From a virus, in IMG/VR virus record IMGVR_UViG_3300028559_000026, positions 1-64,000 of that record: a stretch of DNA of 64,000 nucleotides. One strand, given 5' to 3'. This document shows positions 4,354 through 57,347 of the stretch, in pieces. The notes beneath the pieces are model-generated. The model had not been told where the DNA came from. It saw only the letters and a program-made list of their open reading frames with translations, and searched no databases. A program made the translations under genes and the position numbers. How positions within the stretch are numbered: position 1 is the stretch's first letter; each line of letters starts with the position of its first letter.

Positions 4354-5591
4354 TGTTGTATCTGAAAATTCACCCGGACTCGCAATTTGCAGAACTTCTA
4401 AAGCGGCTGATAGTTAACCCAACTATTAGAACACAAGAGGTTATATCTAGCTGGCAGCACAAAGCTAGAGGTGGTGGTACCACGGACATCTCTGGTACTA
4501 GGGCAGCTTTCCTGTTAGACCTGATTGGTGAGGCGGTTACAGGTAGTTGGATTGATAAAGCCACCAAAGGTGTCATTACCATCGATGTTAAAGATGCACT
4601 TCTAGCTGATGCCCCGGTTAATGCAACCACAGTCACAGTATCACCAGCACCAGCCGATGACAGTATGGTTAAAGCACTTGAGAAGCGCATCCAGGAGCTT
4701 GAGAAGGAGCTTAAAGCGGCCAGTGGTGTCACCACCAAGGTGACACCACAAACTGCCCCAGCAGTCAAAGCAGAACCATTGGTGACACCCACCATATTCC
4801 CTTCGGTGCCTGTTAATCGTGCTAGCTTGGGTGCCAAGTTCATTGCGCCTAGTTGGTACAGTATTATGTGTGATGCACTTACATCTGGGCGTCATGTATC
4901 CATTGCTGGGCCTCCTGGTCCTGGCAAGAGTACAGCACCCGAAGAGTACTTCATAGATAAGGGCCAGCCATACATCATAGTCAATGGTGATGGTGGGCTA
5001 CGGCGTAGGGATTTGGAGGGCACCAAGGAAATTGGTGGTGGTTCGTCATTCTTTCAGGTTGCAGAATTTGCAGCAGCAGCTATTATGGGATGGGGGGCGA
5101 TACTAAATGAAGTCAATGCTGCTGAGCCTGATGCTCTTTTACTTATTAATGGAATTATCGAAACTCCAAGATGCGTTACCGTAAATGGTAAGACCTATCC
5201 GGTGCATAAAGACTTCCGATTGGTGGTCACGTACAATCCTGGTCTTGCTGGTACCAAGCCATTGCCACCAGCTTTCAAGGATAGGTTCTTCCCTATCAAG
5301 CTCGGGTTTGTAAGCAAGTCTTTTTTGAAGAAAATGTTGGTGGTGCATGGCATGCCAGATAATGCGCCATACAGTGATTTACTGATTGACTTTGCACAAG
5401 AGCTATGGAAGACTCAGGAGTCTGGTAGTATGAGGTATCAGATATCGCCCCGACGTTTGTTTGATGCTGTATTTTTGATTGAGAAAGTCAAGAGGTCGCC
5501 CAAGCAAGCTGTCCAGCAGGCCGTGGTGGACGCTATTGACAGCCATAGCGATTGTGCTGTAATTAATGCCATTATCGACAAGATGTTTTAG
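4353..5591 (+). CDS. MoxR-type (CbbQ/NirQ/CobS-like) AAA+ ATPase
   Basis: Walker A GPPGPGKS, Walker B-like ILNEVN, VHKDFRLVVTYNPG, AFKDRF, ISPRRL. Confidence 0.9.
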   Translation: MLYLKIHPDSQFAELLKRLIVNPTIRTQEVISSWQHKARGGGTTDISGTRAAFLLDLIGEAVTGSWIDKATKGVITIDVKDALLADAPVNATTVTVSPAPADDSMVKALEKRIQELEKELKAASGVTTKVTPQTAPAVKAEPLVTPTIFPSVPVNRASLGAKFIAPSWYSIMCDALTSGRHVSIAGPPGPGKSTAPEEYFIDKGQPYIIVNGDGGLRRRDLEGTKEIGGGSSFFQVAEFAAAAIMGWGAILNEVNAAEPDALLLINGIIETPRCVTVNGKTYPVHKDFRLVVTYNPGLAGTKPLPPAFKDRFFPIKLGFVSKSFLKKMLVVHGMPDNAPYSDLLIDFAQELWKTQESGSMRYQISPRRLFDAVFLIEKVKRSPKQAVQQAVVDAIDSHSDCAVINAIIDKMF

Positions 5592-51046: not shown

Positions 51047-53061
51047 TATTTGCGCTCCGGCAATGCTGCTGTAAATACCTGTTTACGTGTCGGTTGTCCA
51101 TGTCCGCGAATTGCACCTTGCACACTACGCAGTCTGTGTCCCGCTTCTGCAGCCAAATCGGCATCTACACCATTCTTGATGAGGCTGGCTTCTAGGTGTT
51201 TACTGTCTAGCTTGTTAGCCCACTCTATGGCTGCTGGGTGTATTGGGTTTGGTCCAGTATCCACGTTACCCTTGTCGCTTAATTCCCAATAATGCGGTAG
51301 CGACCTAGAGCTGTTTTCAAATAGCATCTCATTATCTATTAGATGTAGTCCATTTTTAGAAAACAGGTAATTATTGGCATGGCGGTCATGTGACCCCATC
51401 ACTGCATCCATAATCCCTAACTTATCCAAATCACCATTACCGGTAAGATTAGAAATTATATTTTTTTGATGCGAAGAGTCGCGAAGTTTTGAATAATCAG
51501 GCCAATGCACATCAGCATGCTCTGCACCATCCACAGCGTTCTGAATAGTGAATCTGTTGTTACCATATATCGACGTAGTGGGATGTGAAAAAGCTGCTGT
51601 GGTTGGTACGTATTGGCCTAGACCAAAGAAGTCTCTAGCCATGTTATGAAAAACAGCCTCGTGTCCATTGCCAGACTCATCATGCTTCATATACGCCAAA
51701 CCACCTTTAGGTGAACGGACCCATCCACTTTGTTCTTCATTGATACCAGCCAAAAAGTGTGATGGTTCAGAAGCACGCCAAGTAGCTGTATCAGCACCAT
51801 GAATCAAAGCTCTTTGCTCTGGTGATGTATTAAGATGTGCTATGCCGTGCTTATCTGCATCCATCTTAGGTTTGAAAGAATTATTCATCCAGACCTCATG
51901 GGCATATGCAACATTTTTGAAATGGGTACCCTCTTTGTTCTTAGGCAGCTTGACTACAGTATTTGGCTCCTTGCTTGGAATAGCTAGGTAATGTGTCTTA
52001 TTATCCTTGACAATGGTGTATTGCTCGTCTTTTGAGTGTGCAATGCCGGGATGGACGGGCTCACCACGAAAATATATAACCTTAGCTGCGGGCTTGGCTT
52101 GATTATCCATATCATTTTTAAGTAGCATTACCACCTGTTCCATCTTGAACAGAGCCATACTGTCAGTCGATGCAACAATGACTGGTACACAGTACAGATG
52201 GTAGGCGAGTAGTGATGCGACCAACCCACATTGCTGCCGGACCTCTTCCAGAATTTGAATGAATTTGCTAGACTGTGTACCAACATCAGCCTTTTCAAGA
52301 GTGTTGATGCCATACTTGTCAACAATATGTGCTATCTGGCCCATTACATTGCCATGCAAAGCAGAACCGGATAGCTGTGCATCGTACAATGGCCGAATTA
52401 GCCTGTCGAGAATGACTGCGGGAAATAGAGCCTGTTCTGGGTCATCCGTTAGCGCTGGATACTTGTTAACCACAAAGTGATATGCCGGGTGGTCTTCCAT
52501 CGACATATCATTAGTGCGAGTAGCTTTGTCATCCAGCTCTTGGATAGAATCATAAACAGGCATATTCCCGACACCCAGCATACATAATGCCAAGAGTGGG
52601 ATATTAGGCCATTCCAGTCCGTCTTCCCTAGCTGTCTGGGATAGTTCTGTTAGCTCATTTTGCTTTTGGTCGATTGTTTTGAGCTTGGCGACATCTGGAA
52701 TGTGTTTTTCATTTCTCGAAAAAACGGTGTTAGCCTTGTAGTAAGCTCTATTCCATTCTGGAAGTTCACCACCATTAGCACCTTTGACAAATACGTCAAT
52801 GTTGATGGGTTGTGCTAGATCAGTGCCAGTAATAGCATCCATCAAATGACCATAGTTTTTAACCTCTGGTATTGAATTGAAATTTGGCATAGCGGCAGCT
52901 ACAAAAGCAGCTTGACGGATAAGATACGGCGAAGACCTACCAAGAGACAGGGCATGGTTAAGTGGAAGCCATTGGGCCATAAATCGACCAAACTGCTTCA
53001 AATCAGCGCTGTTCAATATAGTGTTGTAGGTATCTACATCGTCGATATTGTAATCATACAT
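51046..53061 (-). CDS. degenerate HhH-GPD-like domain + PI3/PI4K-like kinase
   Basis: C-terminal MDAVMGSHDRHANN...LIDNEMLF; N-terminal half aligns with the C-terminal domain of 53061..57347. Confidence 0.75.
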   Translation of the reverse strand: MYDYNIDDVDTYNTILNSADLKQFGRFMAQWLPLNHALSLGRSSPYLIRQAAFVAAAMPNFNSIPEVKNYGHLMDAITGTDLAQPINIDVFVKGANGGELPEWNRAYYKANTVFSRNEKHIPDVAKLKTIDQKQNELTELSQTAREDGLEWPNIPLLALCMLGVGNMPVYDSIQELDDKATRTNDMSMEDHPAYHFVVNKYPALTDDPEQALFPAVILDRLIRPLYDAQLSGSALHGNVMGQIAHIVDKYGINTLEKADVGTQSSKFIQILEEVRQQCGLVASLLAYHLYCVPVIVASTDSMALFKMEQVVMLLKNDMDNQAKPAAKVIYFRGEPVHPGIAHSKDEQYTIVKDNKTHYLAIPSKEPNTVVKLPKNKEGTHFKNVAYAHEVWMNNSFKPKMDADKHGIAHLNTSPEQRALIHGADTATWRASEPSHFLAGINEEQSGWVRSPKGGLAYMKHDESGNGHEAVFHNMARDFFGLGQYVPTTAAFSHPTTSIYGNNRFTIQNAVDGAEHADVHWPDYSKLRDSSHQKNIISNLTGNGDLDKLGIMDAVMGSHDRHANNYLFSKNGLHLIDNEMLFENSSRSLPHYWELSDKGNVDTGPNPIHPAAIEWANKLDSKHLEASLIKNGVDADLAAEAGHRLRSVQGAIRGHGQPTRKQVFTAALPERK

Positions 53062-56000
53062 TACATACTCCCGCGACCTTCTCTAATCCTGGCTTGCTCT
53101 AGTAGCTTAGGAATAGCGTAGCGATAATAAAGAGTCAGGGCTGGCATCTCACCATATTGTCTAACCCAATCGGCATGCTGTTTAGCAGTCTGTGCAGGCA
53201 CTGTGGTATCAATCTCACTCTTCTTTACATTCAGAAAAGGATTGACAGCTTCCCAATACGGTGTGTGGTCTGTATCGGCATTCATACCAAAGGTTTTCAT
53301 TCCTCTGGCTTCCTCATGTGGAACAATACTCATCCAGTGTTTCCAGAATGCTGGAAATACCGCAGATTCATCGTTGTGAAATAAACCTGCGTACTTGGGA
53401 TGATTGCGCATATGCTTAACAGCGTCATGGTGTTTGGCGTAATACCTGTCAATGCCGTTCATAACTTCGGAGTTATTGGGCTCCCACAAAACACTCTTTA
53501 GATGCTCAATAGTATTAGCATCAGCACCTTTCTCTAGGCCGAATAGATGACGGACAAAATGCGTATCGGGCACAACTGAGTTAGCACCACCAAGCATGCC
53601 ATACATATATCTAGCGGTCTTAGGAGCTAATCCAGGCACATCTGGACCGTTATAGGGGCCGATATCTGGCTTGCCTGCAGAAATAGCCCTATCACGCTTA
53701 GCCTTATGCTTCTGGCTATTCTCTTTATGCAGCATCAGCTCTTGGATAGCTGAGCGGGTATCGTCCTTGTGGCGGTTTACTAGGTCTACAAGCGATTGGT
53801 GTAGGCCATGGTATTGGGCCATGTTTTTCAGCTTGTTATTAGCAAGCATAAAACTCTGTACTTGTCCAGCGGTGCGACCAACTTTACCAGTAGTGGCTGA
53901 AACATAAGGCTTGGTACTGCTCTGATATTGGCCGTTAACCAATTTACCAATACGCACGGATGGACCAAGGTTTTCAAAATAAGATCTTCCAGTCACTGGC
54001 AGGGTATCGGGCTTGTCACGGCTAAGCCAATCTGGTCCCACTTCACCTTCAAACTTAGGGCTGGTGGCGTCGATACCCTTATCCTTCATGGAATCAACTA
54101 GATGGCTATTGCTAGTGATAATGCCGTTAGGCAGTAGGAAGTTGTGCTTTACGTGGGCAACTTCAAGATCGTACATTTGTCGTTGGCCCACGGGACGCCA
54201 TCGTACAACGCCCCGACACACCAAATTCCTGGTGTTGGAGATTGGAGAATCCGAGTAAGCCAGATCATGGCACCTTCCTTCATTTTCTTGGTTCTGCTTG
54301 AGAAATTCTCCATCGAGAGACGGATTAGAGTGATATCGCCCCTCCGTAAAGCCTCTTGATTTAGAAGCATGTCCCGGTGCTGGCGATATTGCAGATTTTT
54401 CACAGCCGATTCTTTTTCCGAACCTGAAAAAAAATGCCAAAATCCGTCCACTTCTATCCATATGTTTTCGTGGACTAAATCCACCTGTTTGACAATATCT
54501 CCACATTGAATCAGTCCCGATGTCCAACCCAGTTGCCCTTTTAACTCCTCTTCGATATAGGAATGAGAAGAAGCTGAAGTTTGACCAGCGGCGATAAACT
54601 TTCTTGCAATATTCCCGAATTCCTCTGGATGGGTTTCGCGCCATTCCTGGCCCAGAATCGACAATTGGGTATAGTTGTCCCGAAACTCCTCTGGATGTTC
54701 CAGTCTCCACTTCTTGGCCGCCGCTGTTAATTTCATGGCATGCCATTGGACCATGGCTGGATGCCTCTTTTGCCATTTCAGCATTGCTTGACTGGCCTTC
54801 TTTTGGCGCTCCAGAAACTCGTCTCTCTTTTCCACTTCCCATTTGCGAATCCCCACCATCATCAATTCGGGATTCTGTTCTTTCCATATTTTCTGTGCAG
54901 CATGGGCTTGTTGAAGTAATGCCTTGGATTTCTCGGGATTCTGAACATGCCATTGCTTTGCCGATTCTACACGGGCTGTGGCGCGTATATCCTTGCATGC
55001 CTGACACTCTTTCCGATGCGCCTTGAACAGCACTTCTGTCCGAAATGTTTGACCACAACGGCTGTCCCAGCCCGTCGTCCTTGGTTTTTGTGGCACTAAA
55101 AATCTCCAATCCAGAAGCAATTATTTGGGAAATCGGCACCATTCCTTGGGTGGTCAAAAACTTGTGATTTTGAGAACAAACCACACGATAACCATCCGAA
55201 AACTCGACTTCTATAGCTTCCATAGCGCCGTGGTTGTGGAGTGCTACTACTTCCGTAGTAATAACTTCCCCATTCTGACTTACTCCAAAAACCTTGTCCC
55301 CTGGTAGAAAATTCTTGATTTTCTTGATTGTGTTGTCGCATGTGCTTAAATTTGTGTCCTGATCGAGACAAAACATGATTTCCTGCATCGGAACTGGCGT
55401 GTTTCCAGTTACGCATACATGACCACTTCTTCTCATAAAGAAAAAGGTGTTAGGCACTACTGGACACCACATACCGACCTTACCTACATATCGACGGATA
55501 TGTCTCTTGTCTAGCTTAGCGTGCTTCTGTCGTAGCTTAGTAACCCAAAACTGAGTACCATCATGTGTTATCGAGGATGCGTGACCCAATATAGTGAGAA
55601 AAGCCTGCTCGGCATCAGCGCGTTCTTTGCTCTTGGTCACCATGGTTTTGGTATTATACTTACGGGTATAGGCTGCCCACTCCCCATCTTTATCAACCAC
55701 TGCCATATGTTGATACAGACTCGATATATGCGATACGTCTGGGGTAAAGCCATTATCGTCCAGTCGGGATTTGGCAGTGCGATGAATTAGGTCTGATGGA
55801 TTAATAGTTACAGAGGTTTTCTCCTGTACATTATTCCGACCAGACTTAACCAACCAGCGATGGTCAGGCGTAGTGATGGCATGAAACGACCTTGACTTAA
55901 GCTCGACCAGAGGGCCTTCATAATCCGGGAAGAATCGCAGATCAGTGGGCTTTTGCCATTCCGCCATGCCAGTCTTGGGATTCTTGGTTAAAATCCAATC

Positions 56001-57347
56001 ATCCATAGTTAGATCGAAACCCTTGACCCACCCTCGTTTCGTCAGTGCTTCCGTCTCGGCATCCAGGCAGTTAGGGCTAAGTTGTGAAAACAAAGTACCG
56101 TGCATAACCACTTCTGGCGGCAACTGTCCAGCTTTTAGCAATCCATTGACCTTGGACCAATTGTCCATGGCCTTGTCGTGGAAAGCTGACACCTTGGGAT
56201 CATTCATAATTTTATCGAACGATTCCTTACCCCTTGCATCAGGATCACGCGAAGGGATGTACATAGGGAAAGAGCCTTGTGGCGTGTGTAGTACACCAGT
56301 GCCCTCATCAAAGAAACTCTTAGAGAGGTGCTGATTGGGCGCTACCTCCTTGCCACGAATGGTTAAATTAGTGCTTGGAGTGGCTGCAGGCGCTTCTGTG
56401 GGCCCTGTTTCCTGTGCTGGTGGTGGAGTGACCACAGCTGGCGGCTTCTTGGCCTTGGGCTTCTTTGCGGGCTCAGCTTTCGCTAGTGACTTTTTGACCT
56501 GATAGTCCTCAGCTAGATCGGCGAAGCGATCCAGAAACGAGTCGTCAGCTTCTGGGAGTCGGGACTTGAGAAGTTCACGAAATTCAGCTTTTACAAACGG
56601 TTTGGAGTAATCCCTAATGGTTGCCAGAACCACACCTTTCATACGCTTCATTACATCCTCCCTTACCAATGGGGATGACGCAGGAGCGCTCCCGTTTCCA
56701 GCAGTCAAAGTCTTAGATAGCACAATTGGATCAAAAGCAACTGTTACCGCACCAAAGGTTTTGATAATATCGCCATTTTCGTTTCTGGCTAAAATCCCCT
56801 CAATTAGAGAGGATGATGCGTCTTTCTTTTTATCTGATTGCGGATCGAAGACTACACCAGATACACATGACTTATTACATGGCTTAACAGTACAGGCTAC
56901 TTTGCGGGCGATGGATCGCTCTAGGCGGTTGCCATTCTTCTTAAGAGTAGAGCCCTCGATACTATAACGGCACAGTATTTTCTCATTGTTCTTGACGTGA
57001 TCACGGATTTGTGCTGCTAGTGCGATGGCTCCTGGATGGCCTGAGCCATCATACAGGCGTGACTTAATGTAGATGTATGGCAACTTAACCATATTCCAGT
57101 AGTTACGCTGTCTCTGGTCCGAGGCGTCTTCCTCTTTGAAAATCTTTTTGGCATAAATGATATGGCCTACATTGTCGTTTGCTGACGCACCTTTAGCATC
57201 CTCGCCTCGGTGTTCCCAATTCAGTAGACCATCGCCATTTTCTAAAGATGAAATATCGCATCCTTCAACATCTAGGATTTCACCACTAGAGTCAATCGCT
57301 TCAGACGCTGCAATACCATCAATTATCATTCCCGTTCCCGTCGTCAT
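53061..57347 (-). CDS. Prohead protease fused to an HhH-GPD DNA-glycosylase-like domain, containing two inteins
   Basis: IDGIAASEAIDSSGE...LNWEH...YSIEG...VACT..PCN (prohead protease); PGLAPKTA...VVPDTHFVR (HhH-GPD). Confidence 0.85.
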   Translation of the reverse strand: MTTGTGMIIDGIAASEAIDSSGEILDVEGCDISSLENGDGLLNWEHRGEDAKGASANDNVGHIIYAKKIFKEEDASDQRQRNYWNMVKLPYIYIKSRLYDGSGHPGAIALAAQIRDHVKNNEKILCRYSIEGSTLKKNGNRLERSIARKVACTVKPCNKSCVSGVVFDPQSDKKKDASSSLIEGILARNENGDIIKTFGAVTVAFDPIVLSKTLTAGNGSAPASSPLVREDVMKRMKGVVLATIRDYSKPFVKAEFRELLKSRLPEADDSFLDRFADLAEDYQVKKSLAKAEPAKKPKAKKPPAVVTPPPAQETGPTEAPAATPSTNLTIRGKEVAPNQHLSKSFFDEGTGVLHTPQGSFPMYIPSRDPDARGKESFDKIMNDPKVSAFHDKAMDNWSKVNGLLKAGQLPPEVVMHGTLFSQLSPNCLDAETEALTKRGWVKGFDLTMDDWILTKNPKTGMAEWQKPTDLRFFPDYEGPLVELKSRSFHAITTPDHRWLVKSGRNNVQEKTSVTINPSDLIHRTAKSRLDDNGFTPDVSHISSLYQHMAVVDKDGEWAAYTRKYNTKTMVTKSKERADAEQAFLTILGHASSITHDGTQFWVTKLRQKHAKLDKRHIRRYVGKVGMWCPVVPNTFFFMRRSGHVCVTGNTPVPMQEIMFCLDQDTNLSTCDNTIKKIKNFLPGDKVFGVSQNGEVITTEVVALHNHGAMEAIEVEFSDGYRVVCSQNHKFLTTQGMVPISQIIASGLEIFSATKTKDDGLGQPLWSNISDRSAVQGASERVSGMQGYTRHSPCRIGKAMACSESREIQGITSTSPCCTENMERTESRIDDGGDSQMGSGKERRVSGAPKEGQSSNAEMAKEASSHGPMACHEINSGGQEVETGTSRGVSGQLYPIVDSGPGMARNPSRGIREYCKKVYRRWSNFSFFSFLYRRGVKRATGLDIGTDSMWRYCQTGGFSPRKHMDRSGRILAFFFRFGKRIGCEKSAISPAPGHASKSRGFTEGRYHSNPSLDGEFLKQNQENEGRCHDLAYSDSPISNTRNLVCRGVVRWRPVGQRQMYDLEVAHVKHNFLLPNGIITSNSHLVDSMKDKGIDATSPKFEGEVGPDWLSRDKPDTLPVTGRSYFENLGPSVRIGKLVNGQYQSSTKPYVSATTGKVGRTAGQVQSFMLANNKLKNMAQYHGLHQSLVDLVNRHKDDTRSAIQELMLHKENSQKHKAKRDRAISAGKPDIGPYNGPDVPGLAPKTARYMYGMLGGANSVVPDTHFVRHLFGLEKGADANTIEHLKSVLWEPNNSEVMNGIDRYYAKHHDAVKHMRNHPKYAGLFHNDESAVFPAFWKHWMSIVPHEEARGMKTFGMNADTDHTPYWEAVNPFLNVKKSEIDTTVPAQTAKQHADWVRQYGEMPALTLYYRYAIPKLLEQARIREGRGSM
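54108..55370 (-). mobile_element. Intein 2 (421 aa) with out-of-frame endonuclease
   Basis: Starts CLDQDT, block B CSQNHKFLT, block F MYDLEV, ends HNFLLPNGIITSN, +1 Ser. Confidence 0.9.
54149..55096 (-). CDS. Vsr/DUF559-like endonuclease in the +1 frame inside intein 2
   Basis: SYIEEEL...VDLV...IWIEVDGFWHF...RD..LN......G.I.LIRL; GGAG-7nt-GTG(55096). Confidence 0.82.
   Translation of the reverse strand: MPQKPRTTGWDSRCGQTFRTEVLFKAHRKECQACKDIRATARVESAKQWHVQNPEKSKALLQQAHAAQKIWKEQNPELMMVGIRKWEVEKRDEFLERQKKASQAMLKWQKRHPAMVQWHAMKLTAAAKKWRLEHPEEFRDNYTQLSILGQEWRETHPEEFGNIARKFIAAGQTSASSHSYIEEELKGQLGWTSGLIQCGDIVKQVDLVHENIWIEVDGFWHFFSGSEKESAVKNLQYRQHRDMLLNQEALRRGDITLIRLSMENFSSRTKKMKEGAMIWLTRILQSPTPGIWCVGALYDGVPWANDKCTILKLPT
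55401..56069 (-). mobile_element. Intein 1 (223 aa), LAGLIDADG largely deleted
   Basis: Starts CLDAETEALTKRGW, block B TTPDHRW, ends MWCPVV...VTGN, +1 Thr; remnant TKSKERADAEQAFLTILG. Confidence 0.9.

Follow-up and report, generated by a model that had tools for sequence, protein, structure and literature searches.

A predicted Vsr-like endonuclease gene nested in the +1 frame of a contiguous intein from an uncultured lake-water phage

In the 64,000-nucleotide (nt) stretch of viral DNA analysed here, hereafter the window (positions 1 to 64,000 of IMG/VR virus record IMGVR_UViG_3300028559_000026), one phage gene is interrupted by two inteins, and the second of these, intein 2, contains a predicted nuclease gene of 315 amino acids (aa) in its +1 reading frame. 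The splicing lobes of intein 2 are read in the frame of the host gene, together with a stop-free middle that shares its nucleotides with the nuclease gene. We consider it highly probable that intein 2 and the nested gene constitute one composite mobile element, in which the intein would splice in cis, the nuclease would be translated independently and the whole would spread by homing. This reading draws on the anatomy of the insert, on selection acting on both of its frames, on the predicted folds of its two products and on a presence/absence polymorphism of inteins among relatives. The source record is 76.5 kb long, with a completeness estimate of ~47%, and several lake-water metagenomes contain near-identical sequence.

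Intein 2 has the sequence features of a class-1-type splicing domain. The Pfam model Intein_splicing (PF14890) matched aa 672-1080 of the host precursor with 36.9 bits, above the cut-off of 35.8, and treated the middle of the intein as an insert. The blocks CLDQDT (A), SQNHKFLT (B), MYDLEV..HNFLLPNG (F) and ITSN/S (G and the +1 residue; here and below a slash marks a junction) were all recognized, in agreement with the original prediction, made from the letters of the window, which had placed an intein with intact splicing blocks at exactly the coordinates found here (Table 1). The catalytic positions are occupied by Cys1 (Ser or Thr in relatives), SQNH with an invariant H69, an invariant N421 and Ser+1. 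The penultimate residue is Ser rather than His, as in Npu DnaE.

Relatives were collected by searching IMG/VR with an alignment of the nuclease, which gave 22 loci. Across 15 loci, the C lobe columns D401, L402, E403, V404, H409, N410 and F411 and the terminal T419, S420 and N421 are invariant. When the profile of these 15 inteins was compared with Protein Data Bank (PDB) sequences, it matched DnaE and gp41-1 inteins at E values of 3e-19 to 4e-8, the closest being Npu/Ssp DnaE and gp41-1. An AlphaFold2 (AF2) model, built from an alignment of 15 sequences, was matched by Foldseek to 4kl5, 1zd7 and 2keq with a probability of 1.00, and its N lobe to Npu DnaE (4kl5) with an E value of 1e-7. Thus, the modelled lobes of intein 2 have the HINT fold of the DnaE-intein type, and intein 2 is predicted to be active in protein splicing. 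In three loci hosted by DnaE genes (L013, L014 and L016), position 1 of the intein is Thr (TLTEDT, TMDQST and TVDKDE), not Cys or Ser.

The open reading frame (ORF) in the +1 frame is open over 54149..55120, including eight codons upstream of a GTG codon at 55096..55094, and a database gene call of 315 aa (P0003) starts at this same GTG. The 315-aa product claimed for this ORF in the original prediction proved to be a conserved protein. Its homologs numbered 11, with identities of 32-51%, in a database clustered at 90%, and 63 clusters of it were found among 1.84 billion representative sequences. All of these homologs are 97-433 aa long and are therefore called as separate proteins; longer in-frame fused relatives were sought and none was found, which is weak evidence. 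The nuclease matched no PHROG, and tblastn against 50,697 GenBank phage records gave no match.

The AF2 model of the nuclease (12 sequences; mean pLDDT, the local confidence score of AF2, of 78) comprises a small Cys/His element, a helical region (residues 29-182) and, C-terminal to it, an alpha/beta domain (residues 185-318). The Cys/His motif, which occurs in one to four copies in relatives and is followed by helical W..(H/N)PE repeats, gave a weak Pfam match to PF24071, a phage zinc-binding domain (E value of 0.02, below the cut-off). Together with the repeats, this motif is presumed to form the DNA-binding part. VIA-align paired the alpha/beta domain with E. coli Vsr (1cw0_A) at Z 10.8, with 119 residues aligned and a root-mean-square deviation of 3.0, with the catalytic domain of I-Bth0305I (3r3p_B) at Z 8.3 (90/98 residues) and with the DUF559-type 3hrl_A at Z 7.4; unrelated rows had Z values of 6.9 or less. 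Residues D214, E223, D225, H229 and D250 are invariant among the 12 sequences, and E190 is nearly so. The spacings of its E/D/H-type residues are 24/11/4, compared with 26/12/5 in I-Bth0305I and 26/13/5 in Vsr, and spacing and fold together suggest that these residues correspond to the catalytic residues of those enzymes. According to the model, then, the C-terminal domain of the 315-aa protein has the Vsr/I-Bth0305I (EDxHD) nuclease fold. The Vsr/DUF559-type core named in the original prediction accordingly stood as a predicted fold; sequence searches of Pfam and the PDB gave no significant match to it.

To evaluate the double use of this sequence, codons were shuffled synonymously within the nuclease ORF, with the protein and codon usage kept, 5000 times per locus. 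In the window, the host frame has no stop where 13.95 were expected on average, and no stop-free sequence arose in 5000 shuffles; stops in the third frame number 17, as compared with 16.9 expected. The same was seen in all 15 loci analysed, where 7.7-19.2 host-frame stops were expected and none occurred, with at most one stop-free shuffle in 5000 (P(0) <= 2e-4 for each locus), while the stop counts of the third frame agreed with expectation. At 21 of the 22 loci, the host frame, offset by one base upstream from that of the nuclease, runs uninterrupted for 757-1830 codons and spans the nuclease ORF, and the third frame is cut by stops into 3-22 pieces.

A formal ratio of nonsynonymous to synonymous substitution rates is unsuited to loci as diverged as these (aa identity of 29-46%), and we used mismatch rates at codon positions instead. 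At positions 1, 2 and 3 of the nuclease codons, these rates were 0.49, 0.42 and 0.63 across 15 loci. Variation is highest at position 3 and lowest at position 2, the coding signature of the nuclease frame; selection on the peptide of the host frame would produce the reverse. Similarly, aa identity across the 15 loci was 40% in the nuclease frame versus 21% in the host frame. Both-frame conservation is restricted to the last ~31 nuclease codons, which overlie block F and are 54% identical in both frames. By these rates and identities, selection at the protein level acts on the nuclease frame, and by the codon shuffles, the stop-free state of the filler frame is not due to chance.

The host-frame middle of intein 2 (~280 codons) had no secondary structure in the AF2 model, with a pLDDT of ~36, and could not be aligned across loci. 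The absence of stop codons is the one host-frame requirement of this filler that sequence comparison firmly supports. The original prediction had described a featureless but stop-free middle, a nuclease gene whose 3' end runs into block F and about 950 nt of dual coding on one strand, and it had proposed a search for further inteins with out-of-frame Vsr ORFs; all of this was borne out, the search by 21 of 22 IMG/VR loci with the same layout. As a separate observation, the filler of every one of the 15 loci had a lower hydrophobicity (mean z -2.0) and a higher polarity (mean z +2.5) than a stop-free null of synonymous swaps predicts. The shift is small, 2-4 percentage points, and could also stem from a general dinucleotide bias, making it a lead only.

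Relatives of the intein-plus-nuclease unit reside mostly in phage genes for DNA polymerase III alpha (DnaE), at YGFNK/S...SN/SH. The unit was also present in homologs of the window host protein (L001, L002 and L015) and in another protein without an assigned family (L004 and L011). Among homologs of the host protein, we found alleles with no intein (L024-L027 and L030), with intein 1 only (L028 and L029), with intein 2 only (L001 and L002) and, in the window, with both, and these four states are the pattern expected of independently mobile inteins. Intein 1 is precisely missing between SPN and TPVP in L001, L002, L024, L026, L027 and L030. The intein-free junction at the intein 2 site reads ...QELMY(G/A)HLVD... 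(L024-L027 and L030).

Other relatives are degraded or split. L019, L021 and L022 (around 4650-5220) are mini-inteins of 188-201 aa with remnants of the nuclease only; they keep the nuclease start and the tail that overlaps block F, and their deletions are in-frame relative to the host frame. L003 (560-1723) is a split, "fractured" DnaE gene, in which the TGA stop of the N-intein and the ATG of the nuclease overlap as ATGA, leaving no non-coding spacer. By their sequences, these forms would fit a homing cycle, with the mini-inteins as expected late in it.

The degraded loci may also be read in another way, namely that such units are relics, with an inactive nuclease, a non-splicing insert or both, tolerated as a surface loop like the ShiLan-type insertion in phage methylases. 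Out-of-frame HNH insertions without splicing domains have been described (Arsenault et al. 2025, PMC11855218), and the window host protein may tolerate a large loop. However, the splicing blocks, the terminal Asn and Ser+1 are invariant in 15 loci, and the putative catalytic residues of the nuclease are invariant in a frame under purifying selection. In addition, the insertion interrupts the host protein's most conserved motif and, in most relatives, the essential DnaE motif YGFNK/SH. We therefore regard relics as an improbable explanation.

The start of the nuclease gene bears on a further alternative, in which ribosomes translating the host frame would undergo programmed +1 frameshifting and produce a fusion of N-extein, N-intein and nuclease with no independent start. 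A frameshift would suit the presence of both frames on one mRNA, the eight open codons of the ORF upstream of the GTG and the lack of a detectable regulatory hairpin in the window. In contrast, a Shine-Dalgarno sequence at proper spacing and the N-terminus MPxKxxxGW, conserved from the start codon onward, are found in most loci. GGAG, GGAGG or AGGAG precedes the aligned start by 5-9 nt in the window and in L001, L002, L006, L007, L008, L010, L013, L014, L019 and L022, so that most relatives have a Shine-Dalgarno sequence and start codon of their own, like the GGAG-7nt-GTG which the original prediction had seen written into the intein codons. In L003, the overlap of the nuclease ATG with the upstream stop makes the nuclease's own initiation obligatory. 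No slippery motif was noticed, and no systematic search for one was made. Frameshifting thus appears very unlikely.

A strong hairpin (z -3.5 to -5.0) was observed in three DnaE-hosted loci (L006:4930-4994, L007:4939-5003 and L010:4939-5003), in which an upstream CUCU tract pairs with the AGGAG of the nuclease; the stem sequences vary by locus. These hairpins resemble the hairpins that sequester the ribosome-binding site (RBS) in fractured genes, but they sit within the intein coding frame.

An assembly artefact, in which two compensating indels mask an ordinary in-frame endonuclease domain, is conceivable for a single metagenomic contig and needs no in-frame relative, but its probability is negligible given 21 independent viral contigs, with nucleases 29-46% identical, that share the +1 offset and have both frames open, contigs of three other lake-water runs (X3-X5) with 0 differences and 0 gaps over the covered parts, an open junk frame of ~300 codons that would be a coincidence at P < 2e-4 per locus and, as weak evidence, the failure to find an in-frame fusion among longer proteins. 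One of these contigs covers 53953-55187 and hence the entire nuclease ORF. The 21 independent loci and the indel-free contigs from other runs exclude sequencing error, including the compensating indels that the original prediction had named as a possible refutation. In run X3, the end of a 924-nt Logan contig coincides with base 1 of intein 2 (55370), and the following contig begins at 55465; intein-free alleles coexisting in that sample may account for such breaks close to intein boundaries, as may chance.

For the composite mobile element, we propose the following sequence of events. Ribosomes on the host gene would read through all 421 intein codons, after which the N lobe (~95 aa) and the C lobe (~42 aa) would fold as a HINT domain and the ~280-residue middle would stay a disordered filler. 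Cis-splicing via Cys1, SxxH, the terminal Asn and Ser+1 would then excise the entire insert. The internal GGAG-7nt-GTG would initiate a separate 315-aa endonuclease, which in a mixed infection would cut intein-free alleles at ...QELMY(G/A)HLVD..., and repair would copy in the intein along with the nuclease gene. With the nuclease RBS at the end of the N lobe and the last ~27 nuclease codons within the C lobe, intein and nuclease gene would not be easily separated.

Several observations weigh against this proposal. The empty alleles have Gly or Ala at the position of Ser+1 in occupied alleles, so that homing would need co-conversion of the flanking extein. A disordered loop of 280 residues could slow folding or splicing. 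In sequence and fold searches with the nuclease, Foldseek against the PDB ranked Vsr in its top two rows, at an E value of 0.03, with nothing at E <= 0.001; no significant hidden Markov model match to Pfam Vsr or DUF559 (E <= 0.1) was obtained; and the nuclease profile gave one irrelevant and no relevant match among PDB sequences. A hairpin sequestering the RBS was sought at the nuclease start of the window and was not significant (z +0.68).

More tentatively, Vsr-like intein endonucleases of phages might be ancestrally and predominantly of the contiguous, overprinted form, with fractured genes and natural split inteins derived from it by a stop or an indel in the filler frame; beyond the avoidance of stops, the filler might also be selected to be polar and disordered for cis-splicing. 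We hold this broader scenario to be possible but doubtful.

Table 1. Features of the intein-bearing host gene and of the nested nuclease gene in the window
Feature	Position	Strand	Details and basis
Host ORF	53061..57347	minus	1428-aa precursor with two inteins 10 codons apart; ORF list and translation
Intein 1	55401..56069	minus	host aa 427-649, 223 aa, CLDAETE...VTGN/T
Extein spacer TPVPMQEIMF, 10 codons	55371..55400	minus	separates inteins 1 and 2
Intein 2, 421 aa, contiguous class-1-type, read in host frame	54108..55370	minus	host aa 660-1080; Pfam Intein_splicing
N-terminal splicing lobe, intein aa 1-95	55086..55370	minus	blocks A and B; AF2 pLDDT 89-97; conserved columns
C-terminal splicing lobe, intein aa ~380-421	54108..54233	minus	blocks F and G, ends ITSN, then Ser+1; pLDDT 84-97
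Overprinted linker, intein aa 97-376	54243..55082	minus	Ser/Gly/Arg/Glu-rich, stop-free, unconserved; host frame; pLDDT ~36
Putative homing-endonuclease gene, 315 aa plus stop	54149..55096	minus	+1 frame, wholly within intein 2; ORF list; homologs
Shine-Dalgarno GGAG, 7 nt upstream of GTG	55104..55107	minus	inside intein codons G-L-E-I; sequence
N-terminal Cys/His motif	54995..55060	minus	RCGQTF..H..C..C
Predicted Vsr-like/EDxHD nuclease domain	54167..54568	minus	P0002 residues 185-318; VIA-align and invariant residues
Doubly constrained overlap over block F	54152..54244	minus	last ~31 nuclease codons (SP.PG.WC.G.LY..PWA...CTILK.PT); identity in both frames

The host gene, like all features of the inteins and the nuclease ORF, is on the minus strand. 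A portal gene and a MuF-like gene for head morphogenesis lie just upstream of it and match portal and minor-head PHROGs. Without its inteins, the host protein is 784 aa long, and its exteins matched no Pfam and no PHROG family. A search of the ESM Atlas with the host protein gave a sole lead, clusters of DUF7178-like phage proteins, with a low recognition score. Both inteins interrupt its most conserved motif, LFSQLSPN/TPVPxQELMY/(S,G,A)HLVDxMK, and this placement suggests an active site. Intein 1 has Thr+1, a middle of ~100 aa and no overlapping ORF; it matched no Pfam family and is unrelated in type to intein 2.

The window offers a clear example from nature of dual coding on one strand, over ~950 nt, in which one frame is selected as a protein and the other almost solely to stay open, with a weakly polar character. 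Automated annotation overlooks such genes or labels the intein as decaying, and the nuclease family is without a Pfam or PHROG model. The element connects contiguous inteins, fractured genes and the split inteins of DnaE type that serve in protein engineering, three subjects mostly considered separately. Tolerance of an unstructured insert of 280 residues by a splicing domain, as its predicted splicing would require, bears on intein engineering.

The closest parallel in gene order is provided by the fractured genes of Dassa et al. 2009 (PMC2677866), in which Vsr-like endonuclease genes lie between split-intein halves in phage genes, with 3' overlaps of 6-69 bp with the C-intein, spacers of 27-51 nt and an invariant Glu at the position of Vsr Phe62. 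Like them, the window unit has a Vsr-like core with an extra Glu (E223, at the position of that invariant residue), phage hosts that include DnaE genes, a nuclease gene on the same strand between the lobes and a 3' overlap. In contrast to fractured genes, which have a stop after the N lobe and a spacer, the window has neither and its host frame is open, so that a contiguous, cis-splicing intein is expected. A stop before the nuclease gene, the defining trait of a fractured gene, was found only in L003 and is absent from the window and 20 further loci, giving a ratio of contiguous to split forms of 21 to 1 in this nuclease family. Even L003, with its spacer-free ATGA overlap, differs from the spacers of 27-51 nt in that study.

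The splicing lobes are most similar to those of the split Npu and Ssp DnaE inteins, the closest solved relatives, with which intein 2 shares the HNF(L/A)L.NG block, the SN end and the lack of a penultimate His. Those inteins are split between separate loci and carry no nuclease gene, and the insertion point in phage DnaE, YGFNK/S, differs from theirs; we take it to lie four residues downstream of the cyanobacterial DnaE intein site. For the nuclease, the relevant prototype is I-Bth0305I, an EDxHD homing endonuclease encoded by a group I intron and equipped with NUMOD/helix-turn-helix DNA-binding motifs (Taylor et al. 2011, PMC3239194; PDB 3R3P). Both proteins are bipartite, with a C-terminal Vsr-like catalytic domain and comparable E-D-x-H-D spacing. 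The window nuclease differs in its N-terminus, which has the Cys/His motif and W..(H/N)PE repeats, and has no detectable sequence-level match to I-Bth0305I.

The original prediction had seen in this arrangement a different way to build a mobile intein, but the literature already contains intein endonucleases encoded out of frame or antisense. Gosselin, Arsenault and Gogarten (bioRxiv 10.1101/2025.01.02.630785) reported full actinophage inteins with antisense LAGLIDADG, antisense VSR-like or same-strand, frame-3 endonuclease VII-like enzymes, the VSR-like nucleases having a long helical extension and matching 1CW0 at Z 10.6. As in the window, the nuclease of the actinophage inteins is in another frame, the in-frame middle is unstructured and the VSR-like fold is found (Z 10.6 versus 10.8). 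The VSR-like nucleases of actinophages are antisense, whereas that of the window is in the same-strand +1 frame and belongs to other host genes, of uncultured phages from lake water. Phillips, DeSimone and Gogarten (bioRxiv 10.64898/2026.09.14.751524) described a cyanobacterial dnaX intein with a LAGLIDADG enzyme in the +2 frame, a dnaX intein with an out-of-frame LAGLIDADG being credited to Gorbalenya 1998 as cited in their preprint. The dnaX intein and intein 2 have in common a same-strand overlapping ORF with its own Shine-Dalgarno sequence, a disordered in-frame middle and frame-dependent selection. The dnaX enzyme is LAGLIDADG, in the +2 frame and in a bacterial chromosomal gene, whereas that of the window is Vsr-like (EDxHD), in the +1 frame and in a phage gene.

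Intein 2 shows the defining features of these non-canonical inteins, namely a contiguous frame, an unstructured middle and an endonuclease in another frame under purifying selection. The published combinations of class and orientation compared here (antisense LAGLIDADG, antisense VSR-like, frame-3 endonuclease VII-like and +2 LAGLIDADG) do not include a Vsr-like nuclease in the same-strand +1 frame of a contiguous intein. Since inteins of this kind have already been published for other nucleases, the principle of an out-of-frame intein endonuclease is not new, and the window adds to it a well-documented member and a new host gene.

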